Below are positions 7,459-51,065 of a stretch of 63,105 nucleotides of DNA, in pieces. How positions within the stretch are numbered: the first letter of the stretch is position 1; each line of letters opens with the position of its first letter. A program made the translations under genes and the position numbers. The notes under the pieces were generated by a model that worked only from the letters and a program-made list of their open reading frames with translations, did no database searches and was not told where the DNA came from. Location: NCBI GenBank assembly GCA_964621305.1, contig CAZUOM010000002.1, forward strand, positions 1-63,105. The letters are read 5' to 3'. The stretch comes from an uncultured Gammaproteobacteria bacterium (GTDB taxonomy: Bacteria; Patescibacteriota; Microgenomatia; UBA10105; UBA927).

Positions 7459-8338
7459 GTGGTATTTTATGTCGTACTAAACGGGCTGCCAATTTGCTCC
7501 GAATCCACTCCCGTGCATCAACCGGATGAAAACGGATAAGGCTGTCGTTAACTACTTCTGTAGAACGGCGTTTGTTCATGTACCATAATTGAATAGCTCG
7601 GACTGGAAACTCAATAATGCTAAGTGCTAAATGCCAAATGCTAAATATTTTCTTTGATTTTTTTATTGACCATTTATCATTTATCACTTGGCATTTTGCT
7701 ATCCACGCATTGGGTAAAAAAGACTTAACCCACCTGTTGGCTTTCAAAAATCTCCAATACGTTCCTCCACTCTCCCATAACGGAATCATCTGCAAAACCT
7801 CATGAGCGGTAAATAAATCTTGCTCTCTTCTGGGTACGACCATGTGGGATTCGTCCACGTACATATTCAGACAAATTTTATTACAAAAAGAGACGTCCCC
7901 GGGCTTCCTGCGTAATCCGAGTATTTCAAGAATAATCGTTGTCAAAAATCGAGCGCTCCACAAAGTTCCGGCCGCGGCAACCACATAGAAATCAATATCA
8001 TCATCGCGACGTGTATTTTGCATCGCAAGGGCACCGGTAACACCAACGAGCTTGATGGTAGGAATAAACTTAAGAATATTTGCTGCCTGTGCCGCAATTC
8101 GCATTTTCCGCTTTGCCCATTTCTCCCGTTGTTTTCGTATCGCTACAATTCTTCGCCTCCCCTCAAGAAATAAACGCCCATCCAGTGAGTTAACTCCTTG
8201 TATTTTTTTTAACTTTGAACTTTTAACTTTTAACTTTGAACTTTTTATAATCCATTTCTCCAACTCTTGTTCCGTCAACGGATAATCGAATACGTCAGCA
8301 TAGGCCAACGTCGCAAAAACTGTGTCACGAAGCGTCAT
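7433..8338 (-). CDS. Hypothetical protein with a pol-beta-like nucleotidyltransferase motif
   Basis: VGVTGALA...DDDIDFYVV (G-[S/A]...DxD); carries two micro-repeat inserts. Confidence 0.6.
   Translation of the reverse strand: MTLRDTVFATLAYADVFDYPLTEQELEKWIIKSSKLKVKSSKLKKIQGVNSLDGRLFLEGRRRIVAIRKQREKWAKRKMRIAAQAANILKFIPTIKLVGVTGALAMQNTRRDDDIDFYVVAAAGTLWSARFLTTIILEILGLRRKPGDVSFCNKICLNMYVDESHMVVPRREQDLFTAHEVLQMIPLWESGGTYWRFLKANRWVKSFLPNAWIAKCQVINDKWSIKKSKKIFSIWHLALSIIEFPVRAIQLWYMNKRRSTEVVNDSLIRFHPVDAREWIRSKLAARLVRHKIPLDKIFYGR
7622..7697. repeat. Inverted pair of 7-nt tandem micro-repeats inside a CDS
   Basis: Minus strand AAATGCC AAGTGAT AAATGAT AAATGGT ... ATTTAGC ATTTGGC ATTTAGC. Confidence 0.7.
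8210..8244. repeat. (T/G)AACTTT x5 in-frame micro-repeat
   Basis: Five 7-mers encoding SSKLKVKSSKL. Confidence 0.85.
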
Positions 8339-8344
8339 TGAAAA

Positions 8345-9946
8345 CTAATGTTCGGCAGGTACAGAAGTAGATACTAGGCCGTATTGCGACAAAATTTGTT
8401 GAAATCCAGAAGCCAATGTTTGAAGCACAGCAGAAGGAGCGGAACCGGCAATTGTTCCGTTGACAGCGTCCTCCAAATATTTGATAAGCTTATCATTGAG
8501 TCCATTGTCAAAGGTACGAGATGCCAACGGGAAGGTTCTTGCGTTTTTTGCCTGCGCAATATACGCACCAACGTACGGATCTTCTAGCATAGTGTTGCCA
8601 AGCTCAACCCGTGCATAAGGCTCACCGAATAACCGAGTCTTAGATGCTTCAGTGTACAGTTTTATCGCTCCCTCTTTACTTGTTAAATACTTGACGAATT
8701 CCCAAGCGGCTTCAGGTTCTCTACTTTTACTGGAGACTCCCTCCACCCAAAACGAAGCCCACGTAACTGTCGTCCCTGGCAATTGCGGTATCGGTGAGAT
8801 ATGAAAACGAAGTTTTGGGTTAATCTCTCGAATATCAAGCGCGCGCCAGGAGGGGGCTAGTATCATTGCAACTTTCTCCGTAGCAAATGCATACACAGAA
8901 TTATCAAGCGTGTCGTTCCAGGTATAGACTGGATCCGATGGGGTTGCAAATTTGCGATAAAATATTAGCGTTTCTTCTGCTTCTTTTCCCGTTGGTTTTG
9001 CTAAATTTGCTCCATTCTGAAGCATCATAACGGCAAGTATGTCACTAGCAGCTTCTATATTCCCCCACGTGCCGAGCGAAATGGCGGAGGTTGTAATGAT
9101 ATCAGCATTTTTTACTGTCAGTTGAGGAACAATAGACAACACATCTTCCCATGTCGTAGGTACTTTTACACCGGCAGCAGCAAAAAGATCATCGTTAGTA
9201 TAGAGTCCTAACCCATCAATTTCTATCGGGATTCCGTAGATAGACGAACCGGCCATCAGGCTGTCAGCAACTATCGGGTAAAAAGATTTGGAAAAATCCT
9301 CCGCCGTCGTGACCGTTTTAGGAACAAGCGATAGCTCATTTTTGAGCATAGGCACCCACGTGTTGTGAAAACGAAAAACGTCAGGCCCATCCCCCCTGGC
9401 TATGGATGCCTGGAGGCGCTCCCGAAATTGTTTAGGGGATTGCTTGACGTAGTCAACCTTTATTTTCGGATGCGCCGACTCAAATGCGGCGATGACTGGC
9501 TGTATTATGCTTTCGTTTTCCCACAGCCCCCAATAAGATATGGTCACTTCCTTTGCTCCGGATAACAATCCCAACACAAAACGGGCACCGGCAAATACTG
9601 CCCCTGCCAAAAGTAAAAACACAACAATCATGAGGAGTCGCCTGACCAAAAAACTGCGCTCATGAGGAGAAGCTGGAGAAGAAACCTGCGGACCTCCTTG
9701 CGGGATAAATGGATTCTCTTTAGCGGATAAACCCGTCTGCGGAGCTGGTAGAACGGTCTCCGCCGCTGGAACGATATAAGTATCTTGTGGAGGAGGCGCT
9801 GGGGGCTCTTGGACTACCTGAGGCAAATCAATCGTCATGCCGGAAAGCGGAGATTGGGGCGCTAGAGGCGGAGGCGAAGCTCCGTTCGAAGAACCTACCT
9901 CTTCTTGAATAGGAAAATTTTGCTGGGGGCGATTTTGATCGTCCAT
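8345..9946 (-). CDS. Extracellular solute-binding protein (family 1, sugar-type) with Pro-rich N-terminus and TM anchor
   Basis: ISYWGLWE, GDGPDVF, LYTNDDLFAAAG and FATEKVAM motifs; probable start MDDQ at 9946. Confidence 0.85.
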   Translation of the reverse strand: MDDQNRPQQNFPIQEEVGSSNGASPPPLAPQSPLSGMTIDLPQVVQEPPAPPPQDTYIVPAAETVLPAPQTGLSAKENPFIPQGGPQVSSPASPHERSFLVRRLLMIVVFLLLAGAVFAGARFVLGLLSGAKEVTISYWGLWENESIIQPVIAAFESAHPKIKVDYVKQSPKQFRERLQASIARGDGPDVFRFHNTWVPMLKNELSLVPKTVTTAEDFSKSFYPIVADSLMAGSSIYGIPIEIDGLGLYTNDDLFAAAGVKVPTTWEDVLSIVPQLTVKNADIITTSAISLGTWGNIEAASDILAVMMLQNGANLAKPTGKEAEETLIFYRKFATPSDPVYTWNDTLDNSVYAFATEKVAMILAPSWRALDIREINPKLRFHISPIPQLPGTTVTWASFWVEGVSSKSREPEAAWEFVKYLTSKEGAIKLYTEASKTRLFGEPYARVELGNTMLEDPYVGAYIAQAKNARTFPLASRTFDNGLNDKLIKYLEDAVNGTIAGSAPSAVLQTLASGFQQILSQYGLVSTSVPAEH

Positions 9947-10063
9947 AAAAAAGGAATGTATACCCATCTTACTCAGGTTTGTAGCCCGTTAGGGCAAAAA
10001 AGCTGATTAGATGGGTATATACCGGAACAACCCTAAGTTGTTTCAGTATATAATCATCATAGC

Positions 10064-11455: not shown

Positions 11456-11871
11456 AAAAAATAGTTTTAGTAGGGGGTTCTTTCGATCTTCTTCATTTCG
11501 GTCATACCGAATTCTTGCGCCAAGCCAAGGCGCTTGGAGACTGGCTTGTCGTGGCGCTTGAATCAGATGAAAATGTAAACCGGATGAAGGGAAATGGCCG
11601 GCCGATTCACTCACAACATCAACGGAGAAAAATGCTCCAATCTCTTTCTTTCGTCGATGAAGTACTGCTGCTTCAGCCAATGAAAACCGATGAAGAGTAC
11701 GCCAGTCTCGTTAAAAAGGTGCAACCGCACGTCATTGCCGTCACCGAAGGCGACCCGATCTTGGACAAGAAAAAGGGGCATGCCGTAGCCGTTGGTGCGC
11801 AGGTTATCGTAATCCCCAAGATCCACACCCCCTCCACCTCCATGATCACCAAGCTCCTGGGACTTGAGTAA
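11452..11871 (+). CDS. Cytidylyltransferase-like protein (RfaE-II/TagD family)
   Basis: GGSFDLLHFGH HIGH motif, RPIH, STS. Confidence 0.85.
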   Translation: MKKIVLVGGSFDLLHFGHTEFLRQAKALGDWLVVALESDENVNRMKGNGRPIHSQHQRRKMLQSLSFVDEVLLLQPMKTDEEYASLVKKVQPHVIAVTEGDPILDKKKGHAVAVGAQVIVIPKIHTPSTSMITKLLGLE

Positions 11872-11880
11872 AATATCAGC

Positions 11881-12978
11881 ATGAAAATTCTTGCTATTGA
11901 AACATCATGTGATGAAACGGCGGCGGCGGTCGTTGAGGACGGCACAAAAATTATCAGCAACGCAATTGCATCCTCTGCCCATATGCACAGAAAATACGGC
12001 GGCATCGTGCCGGAGGTTGCCGCACGCAAGCAGCTCGAGTGTATTCTTTCGGTCATTGCCGAGGTGTTACAACCGTTAATACAAGACGGCTCGTCAGATC
12101 AACATTTACAAGGGGACCCCTTGCAACAATCCATTGACGCAGTCGCGGTAACGGTAGGACCAGGATTAATAGCCGGGTTGTTGGTGGGTGTCGAGACAGC
12201 AAAGACCATTGCATTTGCAACCGGCAAGCCCATCATCCCGGTCAATCACGTACTCGCTCACATGTATGCCAATTTTGTTAGTTTTGAACAAAATTGGAAA
12301 TCTCAAATCTCAAATCTCAAATCTCAAACAATTCAACAATATAACAATATAACAATTGAGTATCCGGCTATTTCTTTAGTAGCAAGCGGAGGCCATACGG
12401 AACTTTACTTAATGAAATCCATCAAGGATCTCAAGTGGTTGGGCGGCACCCTTGATGATGCAGCAGGAGAATGTTTTGATAAAACCGCCAGGCTACTGGG
12501 TTTTGGTACCGGCGGCGGGCTTGCAATAGAAAAAGCCGCAAAGAACTTTAAAATTAAAACTTTAAACTTTAAACTGCCAAGGCCAATGCTTGATGAATCT
12601 TGGAATTTTTCGTTTAGCGGGTTAAAAACCGCGGTGATACGAGAATGGAATAAATATGAAAAACATGACGAAACCGTCATTAATTCGTTTGCCTATGAAA
12701 TTCAAGAGGCAATAACCGACGTGCTGGTGAAAAAAACTCTTCGCGCAGCACAAAAATATGAGGCAAAAACCATCCTTCTCTCCGGCGGGGTCGCATCCAA
12801 CTCCCGCCTGCGCGAAAAGTTTAAAGTTAAAAGTTTAAATTTTAAAGTAGTGGCACCGCCTGCGCCACTGTGCACAGACAATGCCGTCTACATCGCCAGC
12901 TACGCATTTTTCCGAGGAAAACCAACCGATTGGCACAAAATCACCGCAGTTCCGGATCTTTCTGTTGAAGCGTCCTGA
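11881..12978 (+). CDS. tsaD: tRNA N6-threonylcarbamoyltransferase TsaD
   Basis: IETSCDETAAA, GGIVPEVAAR, NHVLAH, SGGHT, CTDNA; four low-complexity inserts. Confidence 0.95.
   Translation: MKILAIETSCDETAAAVVEDGTKIISNAIASSAHMHRKYGGIVPEVAARKQLECILSVIAEVLQPLIQDGSSDQHLQGDPLQQSIDAVAVTVGPGLIAGLLVGVETAKTIAFATGKPIIPVNHVLAHMYANFVSFEQNWKSQISNLKSQTIQQYNNITIEYPAISLVASGGHTELYLMKSIKDLKWLGGTLDDAAGECFDKTARLLGFGTGGGLAIEKAAKNFKIKTLNFKLPRPMLDESWNFSFSGLKTAVIREWNKYEKHDETVINSFAYEIQEAITDVLVKKTLRAAQKYEAKTILLSGGVASNSRLREKFKVKSLNFKVVAPPAPLCTDNAVYIASYAFFRGKPTDWHKITAVPDLSVEAS
12109..12123. repeat. Palindrome CAAGGGG-A-CCCCTTG (AAGG-N5-CCTT family) in a tsaD loop
   Basis: Seen directly; encodes QGDPL in a segment longer than canonical TsaD. 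Confidence 0.6.
12298..12358. repeat. (AAATCTC)4 plus (AACAATNN)4 in-frame insert in tsaD
   Basis: Encodes KSQISNLKSQTIQQYNNITIE between NHVLAH and SGGHT. Confidence 0.9.
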
Positions 12979-13293: not shown

Positions 13294-13596
13294 ATGGCTC
13301 ACCCGCCGAAATCGCTCCAACATGTTTTGTGGTCAGTAGATGTCAACAAAATAAACCTCGAAACTGACAAGGCCTACATCATCCATCAAATTTTTGCGCA
13401 CGGAAGTTTTGATGATTTTCGGTGGTTATTTCGGGTATACCCATTACCGGATATTATTCGCGTATTTACGGCAACACCTTATAAAGATTACCGACCGGCA
13501 CGTTTTAATTTTGTGAAAAACATACTCCTCAGATTAAAAGATCGCGCCATGGATCCGCGACGCTATGTCAAAAATACACCTAGAGCTATTGGATAG
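13294..13596 (+). CDS. DUF6922-like partner (putative antitoxin) of an AbiEii-type toxin
   Basis: LWSVD...YII.QIF.HG..DD.RWLF..Y pattern; overlaps the downstream toxin. Confidence 0.7.
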   Translation: MAHPPKSLQHVLWSVDVNKINLETDKAYIIHQIFAHGSFDDFRWLFRVYPLPDIIRVFTATPYKDYRPARFNFVKNILLRLKDRAMDPRRYVKNTPRAIG

Positions 13597-14209
13597 TTCC
13601 CGCCAAAAAGTCTTTGAGCAACTGCGTGTGTTTGCACAGTACGGCTACCTGGCTGGCGGCACTGCGCTTGCTTTACAACTTAACCATCGCAAGTCCGTAG
13701 ACTTTGATGTTTTCGTACAAAAACCCATCGGTTCCGCTTTGCGGAAGGAAATCAATAAAGTATTCGGTGATCACCCATATGAAGTAAACACTGCAGATCA
13801 AATTACTTTCCCGCTTGGAAAAAACATTGAGATCACGTTTCTTTACTACTGGTACCCACACATCAGGCCGCTCATTACTACCGCGTCAATTTCTCTTGCG
13901 TCCGTTGACGACATCATCGCTGACAAAGCCCACGTTCTCGGTCGCCGGACTGTGTGGCGGGACTATGTGGATTTGTTTGTCATCATGAAAAACCACGGCA
14001 TGTCGATTACGAACATTTTCAATTTGGCTACAAAAAAATTTGTTGGGGAATTCGTACGGGAGCAATTCTTGGAACAGCTCTCTTATTTTGATGACGTTGC
14101 TCCTGTTCCCGTCGAATTTGTCACCCAATCCTACACCGCAGATGAAATCAAATCCTATCTGACAGAAAAATCCAAAGAGTACGCAGCAACCATCCGACCT
14201 AAGAAATAA
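13565..14209 (+). CDS. Nucleotidyltransferase AbiEii/AbiGii-family toxin
   Basis: YLAGGTALALQLNHRKSVDFD, KAH....R..WRDYVD. Confidence 0.85.
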   Translation: MSKIHLELLDSSRQKVFEQLRVFAQYGYLAGGTALALQLNHRKSVDFDVFVQKPIGSALRKEINKVFGDHPYEVNTADQITFPLGKNIEITFLYYWYPHIRPLITTASISLASVDDIIADKAHVLGRRTVWRDYVDLFVIMKNHGMSITNIFNLATKKFVGEFVREQFLEQLSYFDDVAPVPVEFVTQSYTADEIKSYLTEKSKEYAATIRPKK

Positions 14210-15818: not shown

Positions 15819-17990
15819 ATGGAGAAGACGTATAACCCGGCTCTCGTTGAAGAAAAAATCTACCAGATGTGGGAGGAGGGCGGGTATTTTACCCCTCGTA
15901 AAACTCGGGGCAAGCCGCCATTCTCAATAATTTTACCTCCGCCTAATGCCAATGCGGATCTTCACCTAGGTCACGCGATGTATATCGTTGAGGATATTAT
16001 GATCCGGTATCACCGCATGAAAGGCGACCCCACGCTTTGGCTGCCAGGCGCTGACCACGCAGGATTTGAAACGCAATACGTGTTTGAAAAGGAACTTGCC
16101 AAGGAGGGGAAAAGCCGCTTTGATTTTGACCGCGATACACTTTATAAAATGATCTGGGACTTTGTGCAAAAAAACCGCACGACCATGGAAAATCAGTTGC
16201 GGCGGCTTGGTTTTTCTTTAGATTGGACCCGCAATACCTTTACCCTTGACCCGAAAATAGTCGAGATAGTCTATAAAACCTTTAAACAATTGTACGACGA
16301 TGGACTCGTTTACCGCGGCACGAGACTGGTCAACTATTGCACCAAAGACGGCACCGGATTTTCGGATCTGGAGGTCAAATACGTCGAACGGACTGACCCC
16401 CTCTACTATATGAAATACGGCCCGTTTACCATAGCGACAGCCCGACCGGAAACCAAATTCCGCGACACGGCACTTGCTGCCAACCCCAATGATAAACGCT
16501 ACCAAAAGTGGATAGGTAAAACAGTTGAAGTCCTGGGGCTTCTCGGACCGTTTCAGCTTACCGTCATCCCCGACCCTGACGTAGATCCTAAATTCGGCAC
16601 GGGCATTATGAAAGTGACGCCGGCACACGATCCTCATGATTTTGAGTTGGGACAAAAGTTTAATTTACCGGTAACGCCAATTATAGATTTTAAAGGCCGA
16701 ATGGACTTTTCGTGGTTTTTGGAGAAAAATGATGTAAATCCAAAGCATCGAGCCCGCGCAGAAAAATATCACGGCAAAAAAGTTATAGAAGCCCGAGCGC
16801 TCATGGTTGAGGACCTTAAAGAAGACGGCTTACTGGTAAAAACTGACGAAAGGTACACACACCACATCGGCACCTGTTACAAATGCGGCTCTGTCATCGA
16901 GCCGCTTCCTATGGAACAGTGGTTTGTGAAAGTGGCTCCGCTAGCAAAACGAGCAATACAAGCAATACAAGCAAAAAAAGTAATGTTCATACCAAAACGG
17001 TTTGAAAAAACAGCCAAGCAGTGGCTCACCGATTTTCACGATTGGAACATTAGTCGCCAACTTGTTTGGGGCATGAGAATTCCAGCTTGGCAATGTCAAA
17101 AATGTTTAAAGTGGACCGTCACTGACGAAAAAAAACCGGAGCGATGTACCAAGTGCGGCGACATAAATCTCAAGCAAGATACCGACACGTTCGATACGTG
17201 GTTTAGTTCTGGACAATGGCCCTTCGCTGCGCTTCGCGCGGCTCACGGTAAACCCCTTGATACCATTGATGACTTTGTATATTTCTACCCCACGAGTGTT
17301 ATGGAGACGGGGTACGACATTCTACCCTGGTGGGTGTGTCGGATGATGATGGTGGGAATATACGTAACCGGCGATGTTCCCTTCCGAACAGTTTATCTTC
17401 ATGGCTTAGTTCGGGATGCCAAAGGACAAAAGATGAGCAAAAGCAAAGGAAACGCGATCAACCCCCTTAAAATGGTTGACCAATATGGAGCTGACGCACT
17501 GCGCATGGCGCTCGTCTACAGTACTGCTGCCGGCAACGATCAGTCGTTATCCGAAGACAAAATCCGAGGAATGCGCAATTTTGCAAATAAAATATGGAAC
17601 ATAGCCAGATTCATTGTCATGAATCTGGAAAACTCAAAACTCAATGACCAAATCTCAACGAAGGAATTAAAAAATCCTGATGATAAAAAAATCATCAAAG
17701 AACTCAACAAGCTAACAAAATCTGTAGCCAAAAATATGGAAACCTACCGCTTTTCGGATGCTGCGCAAAAAATTTACGATTTTACCTGGCACAGACTTGC
17801 TGACGTGTATTTGGAAAAAAACAAAGAGAGGTTTAAAAATGGAGATCCTCAAGCGCTAGCGATTATTCTTCATGTGTATCGAACAATTCTCAAACTCCTC
17901 CATCCCTTCATGCCTTTTGTTACCGAAGAAATCTGGGGGAAATTACCGAGGAAATTAACCGATCCACTCATCATCTCTAAGTGGCCGTAA
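15819..17990 (+). CDS. valS: Valyl-tRNA synthetase (short form)
   Basis: PPPNAN, HLGH, TARPET, GTGIMKVTPAHD, KMSKS; start MEKTY at 15819. Confidence 0.98.
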   Translation: MEKTYNPALVEEKIYQMWEEGGYFTPRKTRGKPPFSIILPPPNANADLHLGHAMYIVEDIMIRYHRMKGDPTLWLPGADHAGFETQYVFEKELAKEGKSRFDFDRDTLYKMIWDFVQKNRTTMENQLRRLGFSLDWTRNTFTLDPKIVEIVYKTFKQLYDDGLVYRGTRLVNYCTKDGTGFSDLEVKYVERTDPLYYMKYGPFTIATARPETKFRDTALAANPNDKRYQKWIGKTVEVLGLLGPFQLTVIPDPDVDPKFGTGIMKVTPAHDPHDFELGQKFNLPVTPIIDFKGRMDFSWFLEKNDVNPKHRARAEKYHGKKVIEARALMVEDLKEDGLLVKTDERYTHHIGTCYKCGSVIEPLPMEQWFVKVAPLAKRAIQAIQAKKVMFIPKRFEKTAKQWLTDFHDWNISRQLVWGMRIPAWQCQKCLKWTVTDEKKPERCTKCGDINLKQDTDTFDTWFSSGQWPFAALRAAHGKPLDTIDDFVYFYPTSVMETGYDILPWWVCRMMMVGIYVTGDVPFRTVYLHGLVRDAKGQKMSKSKGNAINPLKMVDQYGADALRMALVYSTAAGNDQSLSEDKIRGMRNFANKIWNIARFIVMNLENSKLNDQISTKELKNPDDKKIIKELNKLTKSVAKNMETYRFSDAAQKIYDFTWHRLADVYLEKNKERFKNGDPQALAIILHVYRTILKLLHPFMPFVTEEIWGKLPRKLTDPLIISKWP

Positions 17991-19520: not shown

Positions 19521-20121
19521 GGAATCTAACCTCCACCTCGCTCCAGTTCACAACGTTCCACCAATTTTTAATGTAATCGGTCCGCATATTCTGGTACTTG
19601 AGGTAGTACGCATGTTCCCACAAATCCAAACCAACTATAGGGCTTTTACCTTCCATGAGGGGATTGTCCTGATTGGGCGTATCAGAAATAACCAGCTTTC
19701 CGCCGTCAACAACCAGCCACACCCAACCGCTACCGAATCGGCCCATGCCTTTTGCAGAAAATTGCTCCTGAAATTTTTCAAAGCTTTCAAAGGCGCTTTC
19801 GATTGCCGCCTTGAGCGCTCCGCTTGGTGCCCGCGGCTCTCCTTTGGGATTGGCCGCCATGACGGCCCAAAAAAGGGAGTGGTTGTAGTGTCCACCACCA
19901 TTATTTCTTACTTTAGTTCGTATTGGCTGCGGAACTTGATCGAGCTTTTTGAGTAAATCCTCAATTGTTACATTGTTAAATTGTTGAATTGTTGTGAGAG
20001 CTTCGTTGAGATTTTTTACGTACGTCCCATGGTGCTTATCGTGGTGAATCTGCATCGTACGCTCATCGATGTACGGCTCAAGAGCGTTGTAGGAGTAAGG
20101 CAGATCTGGAAGTGTAAACAT
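19510..20121 (-). CDS. sodA: Superoxide dismutase, Mn-type signature
   Basis: [31 protein letters not shown]; AGGAGG upstream. Confidence 0.96.
19962..19993. repeat. (AACAATNN)4 in-frame insert in sodA
   Basis: Minus strand AACAATTC AACAATTT AACAATGT AACAATTG, encoding [11 protein letters not shown]. Confidence 0.85.
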
Positions 20122-24389: not shown

Positions 24390-27218
24390 ATGGAACGGAT
24401 TCCAAATACCGGACAATTTGTTATTGGCCCGGACAATAAAATTCATCGTGGTAACCAGATTCTTAACAATAGTGAAGTCTTGCCGCGCTTATCTGAAGTC
24501 CCGGAACCGTACCGACAGGATTATGAGGGTCTCTGTAGTATGTATGGCAAAGACCGGGTTGATGGGCTGCGCGCTGCGGGTAAAACCGTGGCGGTCTTGT
24601 ACCCCTTTGCCGGCATGGGACACGCGTATCAGGCGTGGGTGCTAGCTGAGTATTACCAGGCCATGGGTTTTCGTGTCGTGTTTGCGGACATATTCGAAAT
24701 TGCCCAACCTGACGAACTCGTACGGCTGAAGATGGAACAAGAGGTTTTGAGATCAATCCATCAAAGCAAGAGAGGCGAGTGGGACACTTTGGTTCGCAGA
24801 GACCCAAAATATTTCGTCTTAGATAAAATCGTTTCAGTGTTCGCCACTATGGGGCACAGCCTATATGCTGCTGGCGCGGAAGACGGAATTAGAAAAACAG
24901 GGCGCCAAAATTTTGTCGAAAAAATAGGGAATGCGATCGGAAAAAACCTAGACAAATCCAAGCACGTAGTGCCGTTTTTGTTTCGACTCCTTGTCCGGCT
25001 TGAACAGCAATTCGTTTCCAAGGAGATGCAAAACTCCATGGTATCCTTTTGCGACAGTCTTGGAGTAGACCTTGTAGCGGCATCGCATACTTGGGGGGTG
25101 CGTCCATTTATCGGGACCAAGTACGAAGATCGGGCGTTTAGCGCCATTCCGGATATAGGCTATAGCGACCCCGCCATCATGTTTTCATTCGCTGCGGTCG
25201 GCAGCCGGATCGCACACGGAACGCCGGGGGGTAGACCCGCAAAACTTTTATCCGATTTTCGTCATATACCGAAGAACCAGAGATTTGATCGGGTTGGCAC
25301 GTTGGCGCAGACACCGGATTATTTGGCAAAAGCGAAATGGGAATCTGATGACCGGTGGGTGATGATTTCGGCTTCCGGCAATAACGATAACCATGATTAT
25401 ATGATGAGGGCATTACAAGATTGGTACAGCTGTTACAAAAATAAGCAAAGCCCGTATGGGCTAATCTTGTTTCTTGGTATGCACAATGGCAAAGAGGTGC
25501 TGAATGAATTGGAGCGATTGGGTTTAACAGGTAATCCAAACATTCACGTCGTGCAGACAGCCAATATGATAGAGACAGCTATATGGCGTTGGTACTGCAA
25601 GCAGGCAGTACAAATTGATATAGCCAAACCCGGAGAAAACCCGCTGGACAGCGGCCCACTTGGAGTTGTTAACCTTGCCATAAAAGCAGGCGCAAGAAAT
25701 GAGGTGAACAACTTAGCCCATGCGGCAATTGACTGGGGGTCTGCAATTCCCTCTGCCTGGCCGCCGGAAGATTACAAATATTGGAAAAGCACCAATGAAT
25801 TTTCGGCATTTACCGCCCCGGGGTTTGAAAGATCTCAGCAAAACTTGTTCGTTTATCTCGATTACCTATTTGGTGAAAATCAGGAGAAAAAAAATTATGC
25901 TAGAGATTGCGCAACCCGGGGTCGCTATAGCGTGCCGCATCAGGCTGGTAAATATTACGCGGCATTAGTAATTAGTAAAATGCTCGGCATAGACTCACTT
26001 AATATGCGCATGGTTGCGTTTCAAAACGTAGAAGAGCGCAAGGAAAAACTGCGCATGGTGCTTGATTTGGTTGGTAGAAACTGGAAAGACGCTCCGTCAG
26101 TTGTGGATTGGCTGCAGGATGCTCTGCTTGAGCTGGCCGGGTATCAACGGGGAGAGATGAATGTGTTTTTAAAGGCTGTTGCACCAAAAACCATGGTAAT
26201 AACCATTCACGGAGGTGCGGCAACACGGTGGGGTGAATCGTTTCAGACTGATGAAGGAAAGCAGATTCTAGATCGCTACGAAATTAATCCATCGGTATCA
26301 ACCAAAGCCAGATGCCTGGTGGACCTTCCGGTTGCCTTCAGTGAGCATTACCCGGATAATGATAGGCAGCCGGTTATTGCATGGAATTTTGAGGCAGTCA
26401 GGGATATCGTCTGCGCCGGAGCAAGCCACATGGTGATAGCAGGTTCAGAAAAAAACAAAGATGAGCTTCTCGGAGTCGCCTCTCAAATGGGGATGGATGG
26501 AAGCTTTGGAAGATTGCAGAAAGTAAGAGACCGTAAGCTAAAAGTGCAAGGCCACGGTGATGCGCTACTACAGCAGCTAGATGACCTGAAAAAAGCAAAA
26601 GAACAAGGAATAGAGTATTTAGTGGCACATTTTGCCGGAGACGCTACTGATTCGCGCAGTGTTCAAATGAGCCTTTTGCTTCAGTACGTACTCAAATTAA
26701 ATGGTAAACCCGTCTCGGGCGTTTTACCGACGGCACCCATGGCGATCCCCAAGTATCCGGTCTACCGTGATACCATGGGCCGGAGTGTCTTTCTTGGCCA
26801 CGAAAAATTATATGGTCCTAACTCTGTAGGCAATCCTCTGGCAAAAGTGGTACAGCTGACGTTTGATGGCAAGGAGGATCTTTTTGAAACCGGCGGGTCC
26901 AATATCGGGGTATGGGTTTTTGACCTGCCTCAGACAATTGAAGTGCTTGATAGCGTTGTCGGGCTCTACGACGAAGCTCATACGTTTGCAAGGCTGCCTG
27001 GTCACGGAGCCAAACAGATGGATGAGTTTGCCCTCGACGACCTCGTCCGAATGCTGGGCGATGTGGTTCAAATTATGGTATCGAGCAAAAAAGAGATAGC
27101 TTCTAGCGTTAAAGCCCTCACGGATATTACGGGATTTCTAGAGAGTGTTGCTGCTGTTAAAAGTCGCCAGCGCTCTCGCAAAAGCAGACAAAAAATACTC
27201 AAACCATTCCTCTTGTAG
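24390..27218 (+). CDS. Putative GT-B glycosyltransferase fused to a GlmU-like nucleotidyltransferase domain
   Basis: N-half AGMGH, SHTWG, SASG, IAKPGE; C-half IHGGAATRW, GHGDAL, FAGD, NIGVWVF. Confidence 0.6.
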   Translation: MERIPNTGQFVIGPDNKIHRGNQILNNSEVLPRLSEVPEPYRQDYEGLCSMYGKDRVDGLRAAGKTVAVLYPFAGMGHAYQAWVLAEYYQAMGFRVVFADIFEIAQPDELVRLKMEQEVLRSIHQSKRGEWDTLVRRDPKYFVLDKIVSVFATMGHSLYAAGAEDGIRKTGRQNFVEKIGNAIGKNLDKSKHVVPFLFRLLVRLEQQFVSKEMQNSMVSFCDSLGVDLVAASHTWGVRPFIGTKYEDRAFSAIPDIGYSDPAIMFSFAAVGSRIAHGTPGGRPAKLLSDFRHIPKNQRFDRVGTLAQTPDYLAKAKWESDDRWVMISASGNNDNHDYMMRALQDWYSCYKNKQSPYGLILFLGMHNGKEVLNELERLGLTGNPNIHVVQTANMIETAIWRWYCKQAVQIDIAKPGENPLDSGPLGVVNLAIKAGARNEVNNLAHAAIDWGSAIPSAWPPEDYKYWKSTNEFSAFTAPGFERSQQNLFVYLDYLFGENQEKKNYARDCATRGRYSVPHQAGKYYAALVISKMLGIDSLNMRMVAFQNVEERKEKLRMVLDLVGRNWKDAPSVVDWLQDALLELAGYQRGEMNVFLKAVAPKTMVITIHGGAATRWGESFQTDEGKQILDRYEINPSVSTKARCLVDLPVAFSEHYPDNDRQPVIAWNFEAVRDIVCAGASHMVIAGSEKNKDELLGVASQMGMDGSFGRLQKVRDRKLKVQGHGDALLQQLDDLKKAKEQGIEYLVAHFAGDATDSRSVQMSLLLQYVLKLNGKPVSGVLPTAPMAIPKYPVYRDTMGRSVFLGHEKLYGPNSVGNPLAKVVQLTFDGKEDLFETGGSNIGVWVFDLPQTIEVLDSVVGLYDEAHTFARLPGHGAKQMDEFALDDLVRMLGDVVQIMVSSKKEIASSVKALTDITGFLESVAAVKSRQRSRKSRQKILKPFLL

Positions 27219-34833: not shown

Positions 34834-35130
34834 ATGAAAAAGTTCGTCCTCACCCTCGTTATCCTTATTCTTATTACTGCAATTGCAGTAGCCGGATATT
34901 TTGGCTACACGCAGATAACACAGTCAAAGGCCGCCTCAACAATCCAAACAGGAATAGCACTCCCTAGCTTATTAGTCAATCCGTTTATTGAAAAGCCTGC
35001 CAGCGGATTTGGTGGCGCCTCCATGGTCCAGACATTGTTTACTGAGCCCACGCCAACTTATCAGAATCCATTCGGATCAACGCGGTCGGGAAACCCGTCA
35101 TACCAGAATCCTTTTGAGGCACTACGATGA
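34834..35130 (+). CDS. Hypothetical single-TM protein
   Basis: N-terminal TM; YQNPF repeated in the tail. Confidence 0.6.
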   Translation: MKKFVLTLVILILITAIAVAGYFGYTQITQSKAASTIQTGIALPSLLVNPFIEKPASGFGGASMVQTLFTEPTPTYQNPFGSTRSGNPSYQNPFEALR

Positions 35131-35131
35131 T

Positions 35132-36328
35132 ATGCAAACTTCAAACTTAAAAATGAAAACTTTAAACTTTTTAAAACTCTGTGTTTTTCTTTTCGTATTT
35201 ATCATTTTGAATTTTAAAGTTTTAAGTTTACCGTTCCCTTCTATATTCGCCCAATCCCGCTTGACCTATCCGATCCCCGAGCTCGGCTTTTGCCGAGACG
35301 CCAAGGAGTGCTACCTCTACTGTCAGATTCCAGAAAACAAGGCTGCTTGTTGGTCGTACGGCAAATACAAACTTGGTCCGCAAGTCTTGGGCGCAAACAC
35401 CATGAGCGAAGAAGAAAAGCGCTTTATGCGGGAGAAAGCCAAACAGTACGGTATCACCTTCCCCATTGCCGAGCTGGATAACTGCGCGGGGCCGGCTGAA
35501 TGTCGCGACTTCTGTGAACAACCTAATAATCACCAGACATGCATGGACTTTGCCAAGAAAAAAGGCTTTGCCAGAGAGATGGACCAGCGTCCTGGGGGCA
35601 TTGCCCAAGAGAAGCGACTGCAAATCATGCAAAGTGCTCAAAGAGAACTTGGCTGTACCTCGATGGAAAGCTGCAGGAACGTCTGTGAACAGGACCAGGC
35701 TCGCTGCGAGGCTTTCGCCAAAAAATACGGCCTAACTCAAGAACCGCCTGCTGAGTATCGGCAAAAGAAGGAAGAAATGATGAAAAAAGCCCGTGTTGAT
35801 CTTGGTTGTGACTCGATGGAATCCTGTCGCAGTGTCTGTGAAAAAAATCCGGAGCGCTGCATGCAATTTGCCCGGCGTCACGGCTTTGACCGAGGATCGC
35901 ATCCGCAGTCGCCTCCACCAGAGGCATCGCCAAACTACGGGATCCAACGGTTTGGCAAAGGCGGTTGTGATAGCCAAGATTCCTGCAAAAAATACTGCCA
36001 GGAACACCCTGATGAATGCCCTGGATTCCAGGGGTACACACGTGCCATAGAGGGCGGGGTCTCCTCACAACAAAGCCCAGGAACCTACGTGGGTCCCACC
36101 GGCTGCCGCTCTGAGACAGAGTGTAAAGGTTTTTGCGAAACCAACCCAGACAAATGTCCCGGATTTAGGCAGTCCCAGCAGAAAATGCCCACGTATCAAG
36201 AGCAATATCCCTACCAACCGCCTTCCGTGTCCCCGTATCCCAGCTACGCGCCAGGAGGGGGCACCTACCTCGAGCCAATACCCATCTCCTATCCTACTTA
36301 TTCCACCACACCCAACACACAACCATAA
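35132..36328 (+). CDS. Secreted Cys-rich repeat protein
   Basis: Six C-x5-C-x3-C-x6/8-C units; the N-terminus is built from 7-nt micro-repeats. Confidence 0.75.
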   Translation: MQTSNLKMKTLNFLKLCVFLFVFIILNFKVLSLPFPSIFAQSRLTYPIPELGFCRDAKECYLYCQIPENKAACWSYGKYKLGPQVLGANTMSEEEKRFMREKAKQYGITFPIAELDNCAGPAECRDFCEQPNNHQTCMDFAKKKGFAREMDQRPGGIAQEKRLQIMQSAQRELGCTSMESCRNVCEQDQARCEAFAKKYGLTQEPPAEYRQKKEEMMKKARVDLGCDSMESCRSVCEKNPERCMQFARRHGFDRGSHPQSPPPEASPNYGIQRFGKGGCDSQDSCKKYCQEHPDECPGFQGYTRAIEGGVSSQQSPGTYVGPTGCRSETECKGFCETNPDKCPGFRQSQQKMPTYQEQYPYQPPSVSPYPSYAPGGGTYLEPIPISYPTYSTTPNTQP

Positions 36329-45420: not shown

Positions 45421-46119
45421 CTACTTTCCAAATCTGCGCTGGCGGGAGGTGAACTGAGCAATCACATCATCCAGTTTTTCCGGAGTAAATTCCGGCATAA
45501 ACCACTGGGGAAAATAGATCTCGCTGTAAACAGACTGCCAAGGTAAAAATCCGCTCAGTCGCTGTTCCCCTCCAGTGCGGACAATCATCTCCGGATCGGG
45601 AATGCCGGAAGTATCAAGACAATTGTTAAATTGTTCCATTGTTAAATTATTACAGTTTCCTCTCACATTAAGCAACTTATTTATTGCTCGAATAATCTCG
45701 TCTCTTCCTCCGTAGTTGAGCGCAAAGATTGCCGTAATAGCGGTGTTGTTTTTCGTTTGTTCCACAACTTTATCCAGGGCATCTTTAATGTGGTTAGAGA
45801 ATTTACTGGTGTCGCCAATCACCTTAATCTGCACTCCCTTTTTATGCAGCCGGTACCATCGGTCTTTGATGATATACCGAAAAATCCGCATGATTCCTTC
45901 GACTTCTTTTTTATCCCTCTTCCAATTTTCTGTCGACCACGCCCAAAAGGTCATGTATTTGATACCGCGTTTGGTAGCATACTCAATAAGCGGCTCAAGA
46001 ATGTCATCGGCAACCTTCTTATGCCCGGCCAATGGTGATAGTCCGTGTGTCTTTGCCCACCTGCGGTTGCCATCCATGATAATGGCTATATGAAGGGGGA
46101 CATTGGTAAATTGTTTCAT
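45421..46119 (-). CDS. uppS: cis-prenyltransferase (undecaprenyl diphosphate synthase)
   Basis: HIAIIMDGNRRWA, STENW.R, LNYGGR.E, RTGGE.RLSGF. Confidence 0.97.
   Translation of the reverse strand: MKQFTNVPLHIAIIMDGNRRWAKTHGLSPLAGHKKVADDILEPLIEYATKRGIKYMTFWAWSTENWKRDKKEVEGIMRIFRYIIKDRWYRLHKKGVQIKVIGDTSKFSNHIKDALDKVVEQTKNNTAITAIFALNYGGRDEIIRAINKLLNVRGNCNNLTMEQFNNCLDTSGIPDPEMIVRTGGEQRLSGFLPWQSVYSEIYFPQWFMPEFTPEKLDDVIAQFTSRQRRFGK
45620..45651. repeat. (AAYAATNN)4 in-frame insert in uppS
   Basis: Encodes NNLTMEQFNN. Confidence 0.8.
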
Positions 46120-46131
46120 TGTTAAATTGTT
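46100..46131. repeat. (AACAATNN)4 at the NUDIX/uppS junction
   Basis: Supplies the NUDIX stop and the probable uppS start. Confidence 0.8.
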
Positions 46132-46646
46132 AAAAACCCGATATGTTTCAGTGTCGCCGCGGCCCACGTTGAAAGCATTACCTCTCCGGATGAAATTTTT
46201 TTATCAAGCTCTTCTTTACTGAAAAAGGCAACGTGATCGATTTCGTCAGGACTGGTCTGGAACGGACCTTCATATATAGTCTTGTACAGCGCGTTCATTT
46301 CTGCTTCCCGTTCATCTTCAAAGTATCGAGTGTGGAGGTGCTTCACTGGTACATCAATACCGAGCTCTTCTACAAGCTCCCGCCTCACCGCTTGCTCGTA
46401 AGTTTCTCCTTTGGAAACATGACCTGCTGCGGAAATGCCCCAGTATCCAGGTTGTAAATCTTTGGTCAAGCTCCGCTTCTGCAGAAGAATCCTGCCTTTC
46501 TTGTCGAAAATAACGACTCCTACGGCGCGATGGATGAGCGCTTTGTCCCGATGACACTCTGTTCGCATACGGTACCCCAAGACATTGTCATTGCGGTCAA
46601 CGACAATAAAAAGCTCATGTAAATCATCAGTTATTTGTCGTTTCAT
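46122..46646 (-). CDS. NUDIX hydrolase, IPP-isomerase-like
   Basis: HRAV...ILLQKRS..K...PG.W..SAAGHV..GE......RELVEELG. Confidence 0.85.
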   Translation of the reverse strand: MKRQITDDLHELFIVVDRNDNVLGYRMRTECHRDKALIHRAVGVVIFDKKGRILLQKRSLTKDLQPGYWGISAAGHVSKGETYEQAVRRELVEELGIDVPVKHLHTRYFEDEREAEMNALYKTIYEGPFQTSPDEIDHVAFFSKEELDKKISSGEVMLSTWAAATLKHIGFLTI

Positions 46647-47458: not shown

Positions 47459-47462
47459 GTTG

Positions 47463-49425: not shown

Positions 49426-49452
49426 GATATATAATTAGTCGTAAAAAGAGGG

Positions 49453-49683
49453 TTAGAACCCTCGTTGGAGCAAAGAAACAAGGAAAGTGATGGCTGAACC
49501 AACAAGAATATAAGTACTTAGAACCAAAAAACTAGCGCCAAGTATTAATAGTGGCCACGGCATGATTTTTAGGTGTTTGACAAGCCTTTTATATGCCGGA
49601 GTCAGCGGCCCCAATCTTTGCGGCGGCAGCTCCATGACCTCTTCAAAACGGGCAACAAATTTCTGGTAGGCGATCTTTGTCAT
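49453..49683 (-). CDS. Small single-TM protein next to the ECF sigma factor
   Basis: LPPQRLGPLT, then a TM; ATGA overlap with the sigma gene. Confidence 0.7.
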   Translation of the reverse strand: MTKIAYQKFVARFEEVMELPPQRLGPLTPAYKRLVKHLKIMPWPLLILGASFLVLSTYILVGSAITFLVSLLQRGF

Positions 49684-50219
49684 AACGATAAAAATGCTTC
49701 TACAAAGGCTTTCCGTGCTCGAAACAACTGTGACTCAACGCTTTTGAGCGTAGTTGTCAGACGCTGGGAAATTTCGGCAACGGACAGGCTCTCGAAATAG
49801 CGCAGCGAAAGTATGTTGCGGTACTGTGGAATCATACGACTCAAAACATTTTTAATTTTTTCTTTAACGAATATTGTATCAATAATTTCTTCGGGATTAA
49901 GGATCGGTGAAACTAGCGCTTCAAGATTGGGGGTTTTAGAAAAAACCATGTGGAAAACTTTTTTCCTCCGATAGTAGTCGATAATTTTATGGTTGCAGAT
50001 GGCAAAAAGGAATGTTTCCATAGATGACTTGCCGGTGTAATCACGGATTGACTCAAGAAATGCAAAAAGGGTATCCTGCAACACTTCCTCCGCGTCAGTG
50101 GGGTTGGTAATTTTGGTGCGAATTCTGCGGGATAGCTTGGGCTCAAAGGTGTGATAAAAAATGTGGAGCGCTCTCTTGTCTCGATCCAATATCTGGTCGA
50201 TGAGGAGTCTGTCTATCAT
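49680..50219 (-). CDS. ECF-type RNA polymerase sigma factor
   Basis: DAEEVLQDT, Y.GKSS..TFL..I..HK..DYYR, LS..EIS......VESQLFRAR. Confidence 0.92.
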   Translation of the reverse strand: MIDRLLIDQILDRDKRALHIFYHTFEPKLSRRIRTKITNPTDAEEVLQDTLFAFLESIRDYTGKSSMETFLFAICNHKIIDYYRRKKVFHMVFSKTPNLEALVSPILNPEEIIDTIFVKEKIKNVLSRMIPQYRNILSLRYFESLSVAEISQRLTTTLKSVESQLFRARKAFVEAFLSL

Positions 50220-50237
50220 AGATAATACCTTACTATA

Positions 50238-51065
50238 TCAGGCTATTCGCTCGATGACAAATCGGGCAAAATCCTCGAAAGATTTTCTTATGTCCAGCGA
50301 AATATCAAGTGCAGCTAGAGCTTCTTGTGCTTCTTTTTCTAGTGGGCCGACCAATTGATCAAACTGTCTTTTTGTTATTTCCTTATCCAATAGATCGTCT
50401 TTGAGCTGAAACAGCTTTCCTACCGGAACACCATAGAGGGCCAACTGCTTCAGTGTTTGTTCCCCTGCTCCTGCTAGCGCTGCCCCAATCTGCAGCGGCC
50501 GCACCACTGTATACCAGGCGGTTTTGAGCTTGTTGATTTTCTCTTGAGATACTTTCTTATACCCTGCCTGCTTCATAATGTCTAATGTTTGACCGAAAAC
50601 AACCTCTTCCTTCATTTTGAAGTATAAATCTATTGCTGCAATGTTTTGAGTTTTACTCATACATTCGTCCGCCCACACAAGAGCAAGATCACCGGCTAGA
50701 ATCGCCATGCTCTCACCAAAACGCTTTGCATTTTTCACTTTAAACTTTAAACTTTCAACTTTAAACTTTTCATGTACCGTCGGTCCCCCCCGCCTCTGCA
50801 CATCCTCGTCCATAATATCGTCATGAATTAGGGCAAACGTGTGAAACAGCTCTACGCCAAGCATTGCATCGAGCAAAGCTCTTGGGAAATTCCCAGAATT
50901 TGCGAGTTGATACCCGAGCCTGACGAGATACGGCCGAACCCGCTTGGAAGGACGAAGGGTAAGGTCGGCTACCCCCTCGACAATAGCAACACAGGCTCTG
51001 TCAATCGCCGCTGCAGCCTTTTTCTTTTTTTCAAAAAAATAAACCAGCTCTTCAGCTAATTCCAT
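50238..51065 (-). CDS. trans-polyprenyl diphosphate synthase
   Basis: KRVRP, IHDDIMDED..RRG.PT, GQ.LD, KTAWY, FQLKDDLLD. Confidence 0.92.
   Translation of the reverse strand: MELAEELVYFFEKKKKAAAAIDRACVAIVEGVADLTLRPSKRVRPYLVRLGYQLANSGNFPRALLDAMLGVELFHTFALIHDDIMDEDVQRRGGPTVHEKFKVESLKFKVKNAKRFGESMAILAGDLALVWADECMSKTQNIAAIDLYFKMKEEVVFGQTLDIMKQAGYKKVSQEKINKLKTAWYTVVRPLQIGAALAGAGEQTLKQLALYGVPVGKLFQLKDDLLDKEITKRQFDQLVGPLEKEAQEALAALDISLDIRKSFEDFARFVIERIA
50735..50769. repeat. (AAAGTTN)5 in-frame insert in the polyprenyl synthase
   Basis: Encodes KFKVESLKFKVK. Confidence 0.85.

Follow-up and report, generated by a model that had tools for sequence, protein, structure and literature searches.

Tandem arrays of 7- and 8-nt units occur inside the protein-coding genes of the DNA stretch analysed here, which comprises positions 1 to 63,105 of contig CAZUOM010000002.1 (GenBank assembly GCA_964621305.1) and is referred to below, at its full length, as the window. 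These arrays represent a real, non-random and genome-wide kind of feature, typical of a Gottesmanbacteria-like lineage of Patescibacteria, in which they arise and stay uniform in place. Regarding their origin, the comparison of orthologous genes favours, with moderate confidence, a process in which non-triplet simple-sequence arrays would be seeded in place, homogenised by replication template switching and filtered for reading frame, stop codons and tolerable peptides. Non-triplet repeats are usually seen as on/off switches or as intergenic clutter, whereas here they would form stable, translated parts of essential enzymes (TsaD, SodA, ValS and UppS).

The window is taken to be chromosomal DNA from a Gottesmanbacteria-like, uncultured bacterium of the Candidate Phyla Radiation (CPR), because it carries an ordinary chromosomal gene set (GroES/GroEL, TsaD, ValS, SodA, UppS, polyprenyl synthase, penicillin-binding proteins, DnaG and RpoD) and because of its nearest TsaD and SodA homologs, which show 69-76% identity to the window proteins and, where named, are labelled Patescibacteria, Microgenomates or Candidatus Gottesmanbacteria. 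A look-up of the window TsaD gave no recorded protein of identical sequence.

Arrays of the window and the peptides they encode

With Tandem Repeats Finder (TRF; score of at least 40), the window yields seven arrays of period 7 and four of period 8, whereas 100 dinucleotide-preserving shuffles contain no array of these periods; for other periods the counts are close to background, and at 45-50% GC the window is not AT-rich. The arrays measure about 30-39 nt (3.8-5.6 copies), with 77-100% match between units. They comprise at least five heptamer units and one octamer family, no single unit being dominant, although AAAGTTN/AAACTTN recurs at five sites and AACAATNN at four, in unrelated genes. 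A first-pass annotation, made from the letters of the window, had listed 11 sites with period-7/8 repeats, all of which were recovered by TRF at or within a few bases of where they had been placed; its figure of 4-5 copies holds for most of them, the exception being ValS. It had also placed the arrays in housekeeping genes, which is correct: five hosts have Pfam support (TsaD, tRNA-synt_1 for ValS, Sod_Fe, Prenyltransf for UppS, and polyprenyl_synt), the remaining ones are open reading frames (ORFs) conserved in relatives according to protein alignment, and one array sits at a gene junction. About 93% of the window lies in ORFs, and random placement would suffice to put all arrays in genes.

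TsaD carries four arrays on the + strand, at three sites. At site A, a perfect AAATCTC heptamer array of 4.4 copies (12298..12328, encoding KSQISNLKSQ) is joined by an octamer array of 3.8 copies of AACAATNN (12327..12358, encoding TIQQYNNITI(E)), the final unit of which merges into the conserved xIE-FPAISL. Site B is an AAACTTT/AACTTTA array of 4.6 copies (12544..12575, NFKIKTLNFK), and site C an AAAGTTT array of 4.7 copies (12816..12848) that starts at the conserved REKF and encodes KFKVKSLNFK, beside which KSQISNLKSQTIQQYNN can be named as another array-encoded string. The weakest array is that of ValS (17629..17657, +), which lies between the catalytic and anticodon-binding domains, consists of 2.3 perfect copies of AAAACTC followed by the degenerate units AATGACC AAATCTC, and encodes NSKLNDQIS.

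The remaining arrays in recognised enzymes are on the - strand. SodA contains 3.9 sense copies of AACAATNN (19963..19993) and UppS four (45621..45652, encoding NNLTMEQFNN), and polyprenyl synthase has 4.7 sense copies of AAAGTTT (50737..50769), which start at the conserved H-x-K-F, encode KFKVESLKFK and are embedded in a 21-nt super-period across 50724-50773. A further octamer array occupies the junction between a NUDIX-like ORF and UppS (46100..46135, -; MKQFTNV). As the first-pass annotation had noticed, this array supplies both the TAA stop of the upstream NUDIX-like ORF (46124-46122) and, two bases past it, an ATG (46119-46117), the probable UppS start, which gives the N-terminus MKQFTNVPLHIAIIMDG.

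Two further hosts are less well characterised. The nucleotidyltransferase (NTase)-like ORF 7433-8338 (-) contains a 4.4-copy heptamer array, AATGCTA on the + strand, at 7616..7647 (TRF). This array, which on the sense strand forms the T-rich 3' arm of an inverted pair, contributes FSIWHLALSI to the variable C-terminal segment. Its partner arm (7664..7699, -), of sense AAATGAT/AAATGCC units, encodes AKCQVINDKWSI, and an array of 5.6 sense AAAGTT(A/C) copies (8207..8245, -; TRF) encodes KSSKLKVKSSKLK near the N-terminus. In a Cys-rich protein encoded on the + strand, 4.9 copies of AAACTTN (35136..35169) directly follow the ATG (35132) and encode a Lys-rich n-region (QTSNLKMKTLNF), and an inverted, T-rich partner of AAAGTTTT-type units (35195..35229) encodes the end of a hydrophobic segment, ILNFKVLSL.

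Non-triplet units necessarily give rotating peptides, as the first-pass annotation had pointed out, and the choice of frame can be followed through stop codons. Twelve of the 14 array segments were tested in the correct coding frame, and the two arms in the Cys-rich protein were judged from the ORF translation. The coding frame is free of stops in all 12 segments and open in the two arms, and the other two frames contain one to four stops in 11 of the 12. A perfect AAAGTTT array would present TAA in every frame, and the degenerate seventh position is where this TAA is broken. Since the arrays are open only in the coding frame, they appear to be translated as part of their host proteins; translational bypass or non-translation of the arrays was considered and ruled out on the same grounds.

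The sense strand has a marked composition. Across 42 coding arrays it contains 46% A, 28% T, 16% C and 9% G, against 30/24/22/24% (A/T/C/G) in the host genes, and A exceeds T in 33 of the 42. The resulting peptides are hydrophilic (mean Kyte-Doolittle hydropathy from +0.06 to -1.3), whereas translation of the opposite strand would give hydrophobic products, often cut short by stops. Inverted pairs depart from this rule in their T-rich arms, whose peptides are hydrophobic. The N-terminus of the Cys-rich protein is built from the A-rich array, a T-rich spacer and the T-rich array, which together yield a Lys-rich n-region and a hydrophobic core reminiscent of a signal peptide, in agreement with the first-pass annotation; in the NTase-like ORF, the inverted pair encodes first a Lys/Asn-rich and then a hydrophobic stretch, and the segment that contains it varies greatly in length.

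Array ends fall on conserved native residues: FKVK-LPRP, REKF and xTIE-FPAISL in TsaD, TIE in SodA, and H-x-K-F in the prenyl synthase. Thus, the AAAGTTN arrays of TsaD site C and of polyprenyl synthase begin at Lys-Phe codons, and the AACAATNN arrays of TsaD site A and of SodA end at Thr-Ile-Glu codons. Each of these two pairs is identical at 31 of 33 positions, which in the case of TsaD site C and polyprenyl synthase can be accounted for because a shared seed and phase force the breaking of the same in-frame TAA. The sharing of AAAGTTN would therefore reflect seeding at conserved Lys-Phe codons (AAR TTY) under identical stop-avoidance constraints. The first-pass annotation was right that AAAGTTN/AAACTTN and AACAATNN recur in unrelated genes; however, with common seeding and stop avoidance, unit sharing would need no mobile source. 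Gene conversion between the TsaD site A and SodA octamer arrays was likewise set aside as unneeded, as one relative (L010) has the SodA array without that of TsaD site A.

Whether the arrays add length to their hosts differs among sites. In TsaD, site A is a true gain of 21 aa with respect to the shortest orthologs (FVDGKHIE), and sites B and C add 2 to 7 aa. In an AlphaFold (AF2) model of the window TsaD, with a mean predicted local distance difference test (pLDDT) score of 79.7, the site A arrays form a loop with pLDDT below 50 (aa 137-156), so that site A is predicted to be a disordered loop of 21 additional residues, whereas sites B and C (pLDDT 83-92; 86-87 for site C) are modelled as a loop and a strand of the fold.

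The situation is different in the other enzymes. In SodA, the array makes no difference to the length of the segment when compared with array-less relatives; 99 of 106 orthologs have 32 aa there, and the orthologs form a graded series from the native LPQFANLSIEQL to periodic forms, which at constant length suggests that periodicity spread in place over native codons; the array peptide, xFNNxTIEQL, resembles the PEFANLPVEEL motif of a distant homolog from E. coli. UppS array 2 (45621..45652) aligns to the native ISETHFNEYL of M. luteus UPPS without insertion, the window protein being shorter there, and the polyprenyl synthase array aligns without gaps to a loop of GGPPS 3lk5, with no gain in length. 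The first-pass annotation had described the arrays as insertions in segments longer than the canonical enzyme, and proposed ortholog presence/absence in TsaD, SodA and UppS as a check. This description holds for TsaD and fails for SodA, UppS and polyprenyl synthase; for SodA and UppS, ortholog and structure alignments identify the segments as conserved ancestral sequence in relatives, an outcome that the annotation had itself named as grounds for refutation. The broader proposal that the arrays are a source of new protein sequence is borne out by the disordered TsaD loop, the signal-peptide-like N-terminus and the hydrophobic segment from T-rich arms.

In relatives, the TsaD site A loop also harbours in-frame GC-rich palindromic inserts, similar to Rickettsia palindromic elements (RPEs) or repetitive extragenic palindromic (REP) sequences. 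They were observed in L007 (10385-10480), L002, L003 and in proteins P0019, P0031, P0046, P0065, P0075, P0090 and P0108; one example is GTCATTCCCGCGAAGACGGGAATC...GGGATGAC, encoding SCHSREDGN...IPDQVWDD, and further peptides are VIPAQAGI...WIPDRVGDD and SSRAQSRDN, together with inverted-array inserts (SFIVH...TMNHE). No GC-rich palindromic inserts of this kind are present in the window. Consequently, the analogy with RPEs drawn in the first-pass annotation is apt for the lineage and not for these arrays. A second hypervariable TsaD loop (P0001 aa 71-77, window ~12091-12111, columns 90-165 of alignment A1) varies in relatives from no insert to one of about 60 aa, has pLDDT below 50 in the window model, and in L007 and L008 holds octamer arrays of CAATGTNN.

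Orthologous arrays in relatives and how they may evolve

Relatives were represented by syntenic contigs from about ten related organisms, found through exact-protein look-ups; a genome-collection scan with TsaD added one distant locus (L001, 46% identity), which has no 7/8 arrays. All relatives but L011 contain period-7/8 arrays of about 30-34 nt, and these are orthologous in position across species at 60-75% protein identity. Their units, in contrast, change from species to species. At TsaD site B, the window has AACTTTA, and the corresponding units are AAGTGCA in L002, AAGTTCA in L003 (perfect), ATTCAGC in L006 (perfect), AATTCAC in L007, AAATACC in L008 and TTCAGAA in L009 (perfect), perfect arrays of 4.4-4.6 copies being found in several species. 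Between L002 and L003, an identical T/G change is present in every unit.

Other positions behave similarly. In orthologs of ORF 7433-8338, a TCAAAAG array (L002, 3743-3772) occupies the same N-terminal place as 8207..8245, and the AAAGTCA array of L010 (5907-5949) is found elsewhere, in the variable segment towards the C-terminus. The ValS ortholog of L010 has a degenerate array with a 14-nt period (16855-16890), and the arrays of TsaD sites A and B are absent from L010 and L011. Intergenic arrays also occur in relatives (L007 at 11798 and 19021, L010 at 3655, L002 at 984). Three relatives have octamer arrays of sense AACAAANN at the 3' end of GroEL or immediately beyond it (L002 984-1024, L004 1585-1623, L010 3655-3685), and the GroEL end of the window has none.

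Homogenisation of the units can be traced in the proteins. TsaD site B has a 25-aa form in 63 of 106 orthologs, and the minimal class has 18 aa, a difference of 7. Among 60 distinct 25-aa orthologs, residues seven positions apart are identical far more often than expected (z = 10.8 against column shuffling, uncorrected for relatedness), with z of at most 2 at other lags; site C shows the same lag-7 covariation (z = 4.9). As the co-varying pairs of site B are varied (F/F, Y/Y, C/C, H/H, L/L and K/K, Q/Q, H/H, T/T), the plain reading would be that its two 7-aa copies are under concerted evolution.

Changes in copy number follow a regular step. Between conserved flanks at TsaD site A, L132 has 1.4 heptamer units (AAATCCC AAA), against 4.4 of AAATCTC in the window and 4.4 of AAATCAC in L008; for the octamer, L134 has 2.25 units (AACAAATT AACAATAC AA) against 5.25 units of the same octamer in L133. 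The difference is thus exactly three units for heptamer and octamer alike, and adding three to a seed of 1.4-1.9 units gives the roughly 4.4-4.9 copies found in genes. This pattern is what would be expected from slipped-strand changes filtered by the reading frame. The claim of the first-pass annotation that the arrays are not independent microsatellite slippage is not supported, given these three-unit differences next to short seeds in an unexpanded state. Among the heptamer arrays that metagenome contigs carry in long ORFs, counts fall at three copies and peak at four and seven, a pattern absent from non-ORF arrays, although the numbers are small and represent a trend. For metagenome AACAATNN arrays, a check of the same 3n+1 rule gave a peak at the detection minimum of four, both in coding and in non-coding sequence.

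These observations fit a model in five steps. First, a native stretch with one to two copies of a unit, such as AAG TTT (Lys-Phe) or ACA ATT GAR (Thr-Ile-Glu), would act as a seed. Second, template switching, in the form of slipped-strand mispairing, would add or remove units, and within genes the survivors would be those changes that preserve the reading frame, namely by three units (21 or 24 nt). Third, three-unit turnover together with out-of-register conversion would homogenise the array without net length change, and as a side effect the array could spread into neighbouring native codons at constant protein length. Fourth, strand switching may create and maintain the inverted pairs. Finally, selection would retain stop-free arrays, mostly with an A-rich sense strand that encodes hydrophilic peptides in surface loops, termini and variable segments, and T-rich arms would persist where a hydrophobic segment is tolerated, as in a signal peptide or a membrane segment. 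For the copy-number, homogenisation and selection steps it is the pattern that has been observed, and for the inverted pairs the hairpins.

The inverted pairs fit this scheme if switching also operates across strands. They occur at two of the 11 window sites, the others being plain direct arrays: 7616-7647/7664-7695 (32 nt, 81% complementary) and 35143-35177/35195-35229 (35 nt, 71% complementary, with sub-arms at 83-85%). The first-pass annotation had correctly identified an A-rich run followed by its inverted T-rich run in both places; its comparison to terminal inverted repeats finds no support at the other sites. The RNA hairpin of the first pair (7616-7699) reaches -23.1 kcal/mol (z = -3.2), and at the same position of the NTase-like protein, paired heptamer arrays of different units, inverted about 50 nt apart, are found in L007 (5757-5864) and L009 (5249-5369). 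The long hairpins of the window, L007 and L009 have z = -3.2, -3.4 and -4.0, respectively, each unit contributing six paired and one mismatched position. Orthologs of ORF 7433-8338 in L002, L010 and L011 lack the hairpin. The RNA hairpin at 35125-35240 is no more stable than shuffled sequences (z = 0.1), and the orthologous regions of L006 and L008 are not significant either. Adjacent inverted array pairs are common on metagenome contigs. The hairpins may be products of the same template-switching process acting across strands, and may have a function in the mRNA.

Several points weigh against in-place seeding and slippage. A single viable step from 1.4 to 4.4 units would require three slips in a row, given that single-unit intermediates would be frameshifts in essential genes, and the frame filter does not explain why 7 and 8 nt are preferred and units of 4, 5, 10 or 11 nt are absent. 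In addition, four aligned clusters out of ten 90%-identity TsaD clusters, a small sample, contain no array length differences (those within such clusters are start or end calls), and the process is not fast on strain timescales. Every array state observed in orthologs is in frame, and frame selection would hide single-unit variants among close strains. Octamer arrays at nine of ten independent sites have in common the core (A)ACAA(T/A), and the same array is frequent in metagenomes, where it is mostly non-ORF and co-oriented with the gene that follows; this hints at a sequence preference or function beyond neutral slippage. Lastly, the lengths of period-7 arrays on metagenome contigs show a bimodal distribution, whose second peak, at 27-35 nt, recurs among arrays located outside long ORFs; period 9 falls monotonically. 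The alternatives considered below take up these points.

Competing explanations

The most serious alternative, although an unlikely one, is that the arrays are selected cis-acting nucleic-acid elements, for example binding sites for S1-, Csp- or CsrA-like proteins, unstructured A-rich translation leaders or mRNA hairpins, with the ORF copies being the same elements tolerated or used in coding sequence. This is suggested by an exact scan of metagenome contigs for [AACAATNN]3AACAAT, which matched at least 120 contigs (L012-L131); the figures that follow are among the matches listed. The GC fraction of these contigs ranges from 0.19 to 0.66, 82 of 126 [AACAATNN]4-type arrays lie outside ORFs of at least 100 aa, and inside ORFs the sense orientation prevails over the antisense (34 to 10). 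The gene downstream of an intergenic array is co-oriented with it in 51 cases against 24, and often starts 0-30 nt away, although these distances come from crude ORF calls and are biased towards short values by the stops within arrays. Some of these arrays were also observed to supply the ATG of the next gene (AACAATG). Beyond the octamer, two window arrays are located exactly at gene starts, three species have hairpins of array arms, each built from its own units, at a single position of one protein, and periodicity at TsaD site B is kept in most of the 106 orthologs. A precedent is provided by the TAACTGA heptamers upstream of start codons in Beggiatoaceae, for which a role as regulator binding sites was proposed (PMC4679880). 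However, units vary by site within a genome and by species at one site, which argues against any single sequence-specific heptamer binder; the arrays of TsaD sites A and B and the hairpin of ORF 7433-8338 are each missing from some relatives, and the sense bias in ORFs is explained by the hydropathy and stops of the antisense reading.

Slightly less probable than a cis-acting role is the idea that the arrays do not arise from ordinary replication but mark a dedicated process, shared across the lineage, in which a ruler of about 30 nt is built in. It could take the form of a repair or priming polymerase that reiterates the adjacent 7-8 nt at breaks or gaps and overwrites native codons in place, or of a protein that binds AACAAT-type periodic single strands and drives their spread, so that a cis-element normally found in 5' leaders would be continually written into coding sequence. 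If this were true, Patescibacteria proteins would evolve by templated patch-writing.

More doubtful still is a lineage-specific templated synthesis in place of ordinary slippage, for instance break or gap repair by iterative copying of the adjacent 7-8 nt (through loop-out or snap-back), which would deposit repeats, direct or inverted, in stretches of about 30 nt that at times take the place of native sequence. Whether the unit has 7 or 8 nt, array lengths indeed centre on about 30-34 nt, the bimodal lengths described above extend beyond long ORFs, replacement in place occurs without length change, direct and inverted arrays are found together, and units appear copied from the flank. Nevertheless, stepwise turnover in frame together with conversion accounts more simply for the three-unit differences beside short seeds and for the gradation seen in SodA; the length mode may be the equilibrium of length-dependent slippage; and no candidate enzyme was identified, the window having only the ordinary DnaG and RpoD. 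Restriction sites contained in some units (CAATTG, GAATTC, TTTAAA) were considered as break sites and dropped, as they are not general across units.

The explanation put forward in the first-pass annotation, which sees in the arrays the traces of a non-autonomous mobile element, or copies made from a common trans template, that entered genes in frame as RPEs do, is largely refuted and now seems very improbable. In its favour are the reuse of the same units in unrelated genes, the 31/33 identity within the two pairs of arrays, the true insertion of 21 aa at TsaD site A and the GC-rich palindromic inserts in the same loop of relatives. Against it, no full elements with conserved ends, target-site duplications or cargo were seen, and no family consensus exists across loci, as units vary by site and by species, and the copies within an array co-vary. 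Furthermore, the arrays keep orthologous positions across species, show three-unit steps beside short seeds, and replace native sequence in SodA, UppS and the prenyl synthase without gain in length. The near-identity between loci follows from shared seed, phase and TAA breaking, and array-rich metagenome contigs have no unit in common except inverted partners.

A last possibility is that A/T-rich codons are periodic by chance, or that the segments are simply ancestral protein sequence, as the likeness of the SodA and UppS array peptides to native motifs of distant homologs might suggest. It is refuted and retains next to no probability, given the 11 arrays against none in 100 shuffles, the perfect arrays of 4.4-4.6 copies in several species, the site B covariation (z = 10.8) and a window that is not AT-rich.

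Known repeat systems and other features of the window

Overall, the arrays are akin to known dispersed heptamer repeats and notable for their in-frame life inside essential genes. The closest known relatives are perhaps to be sought among the TAACTGA heptamers, which in Beggiatoaceae, Cyanobacteria and Bacteroidetes precede start codons at a short distance in sets of 2-6 copies, a few of them being at ORF ends (MacGregor 2015, PMC4679880). Both are short sets of a 7-nt unit scattered through the genome; those of the TAACTGA system are oriented with respect to genes, often near starts or overlapping stops, a few lie inside ORFs at protein ends, and the mechanism of transfer is not known (PMC4679880). 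The array at the UppS junction and the metagenome AACAATNN arrays behave in this way. TAACTGA repeats, however, have one dominant unit per genome, with stops in all forward frames, and are consequently almost always intergenic (PMC4679880), whereas the window arrays have units that vary by site, include octamers, are mostly stop-free in frame and sit in the cores of housekeeping proteins; only two of them touch a gene start.

More generally, heptameric simple sequence repeats (SSRs) are over-represented in many bacteria, for which slippage related to the polymerase footprint has been hypothesised (Rehm 2015, PMC4692102, citing Mrazek 2007 and Mazel 1990). Intergenic heptamer arrays, some in inverted pairs, are described in Xanthomonas and Nostoc (GGGAATC/GGGGAYT; the cyanobacterial short tandemly repeated repetitive, STRR, sequences) (PMC4692102). 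The preference for a 7-nt period, the conserved positions with variation in length and sequence, and the inverted pairs able to form hairpins are common to these and to the window arrays; the former differ in being G-rich, intergenic, untranslated and in some cases much longer (PMC4692102). A cyanobacterial STRR origin was considered and ruled out, as the HIP1 motif GCGATCGC is absent. The window bears on the old question of why heptamers are over-represented in bacteria, and of whether such repeats are mobile or home-grown.

Borg tandem repeats are A-rich, have partial-repeat flanks and encode disordered protein segments, with unit lengths in ORFs that are all divisible by three (Schoelmerich 2023, PMC9879509). 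Resemblance to the window arrays extends to the A-rich coding strand (46% A here, 46-48% there), independent origin at hotspots, near-perfect units, new and often disordered segments, and partial-repeat flanks (PMC9879509). In contrast, the window units have 7 or 8 nt and are read in all three phases, so that only three-unit changes are frame-safe, and they reside in housekeeping genes on a bacterial chromosome.

Phase-variable contingency loci, such as those of Haemophilus and Neisseria, undergo single-unit changes, are polymorphic among strains and switch surface or contingency genes. They have in common with the window arrays non-triplet tandem repeats within reading frames and slipped-strand mispairing as the presumed generator. 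They differ from them in that the hosts here are essential enzymes, only frame-preserving states are found, and the aligned 90%-identity clusters contain no polymorphism. RPEs, in turn, are palindromic elements of roughly 100-150 bp with a family consensus, spread by insertion. As with RPEs, small in-frame repeats are tolerated in permissive loops of conserved proteins and serve as a source of new peptide segments; unlike them, the window arrays are of about 32 nt, lack a family consensus, have local seeds and often add no length.

With respect to mechanism, the coexistence of direct arrays and array hairpins matches the pattern of template-switch mutagenesis at direct repeats and quasipalindromes, studied by Ripley and by the Lovett laboratory as a rare mutational event in E. 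coli. There, a single mechanism produces both changes in tandem repeats and the correction of imperfect inverted repeats towards complementarity. Template-switch mutagenesis is not known to shape coding sequence on a wide scale. A literature search for repeats in coding regions or housekeeping genes of Patescibacteria, Microgenomates or Gottesmanbacteria found no such paper. The window can therefore be regarded as a natural experiment, in which the reading-frame filter exposes a three-unit step size and concerted evolution. Arrays of this kind would offer a cheap route to new protein segments, including a disordered loop, beta-hairpin-like extensions, and Lys-rich plus hydrophobic segments resembling signal peptides or transmembrane helices. 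They also carry a warning for annotation and alignment, since length-variable, low-complexity stretches in Patescibacteria proteins may be repeat-driven and not functional inserts. Other arrays on the listed metagenome contigs favour the same periods, with 88 of period 7 and 47 of period 8 against eight of period 6 and two of period 5.

Regarding the rest of the window, the 23S rRNA gene runs off its start (1-1174, -; the 5' 1154 model positions), with neither an array nor a large insertion in this part, and is preceded by tRNA-Ala(TGC) (1342-1415, -); four further tRNAs are present. Rfam matched only the 23S rRNA and the tRNAs across the window, and no RNA family at the arrays. Two genes encode AbiEii-type nucleotidyltransferase toxins (13565-14209, +; 60008-60805, -) and another a TrwB/TraG-like ATPase similar to type IV secretion system (T4SS) coupling proteins (61407-63080, -). 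In the syntenic place of L010 and L002, between TsaD and ValS, other toxin-antitoxin genes are found (AbiEii, PIN, HepT/Pol-beta). Two very large ORFs have no Pfam family at E <= 1e-5 (55126-59367, -, 1413 aa; 24390-27218, +, 942 aa), and the 545-aa ORF 53471-55108, also without a Pfam match, has near its C-terminus a (TGG)7 run (55066-55086, +), read as seven GGT codons for a Gly run. Finally, besides its heptamer array, ValS contains an ordinary triplet-compatible repeat, 3.6 copies of the 9-nt unit AGCAATACA (16943-16974, +), which encodes AIQAIQAKK.

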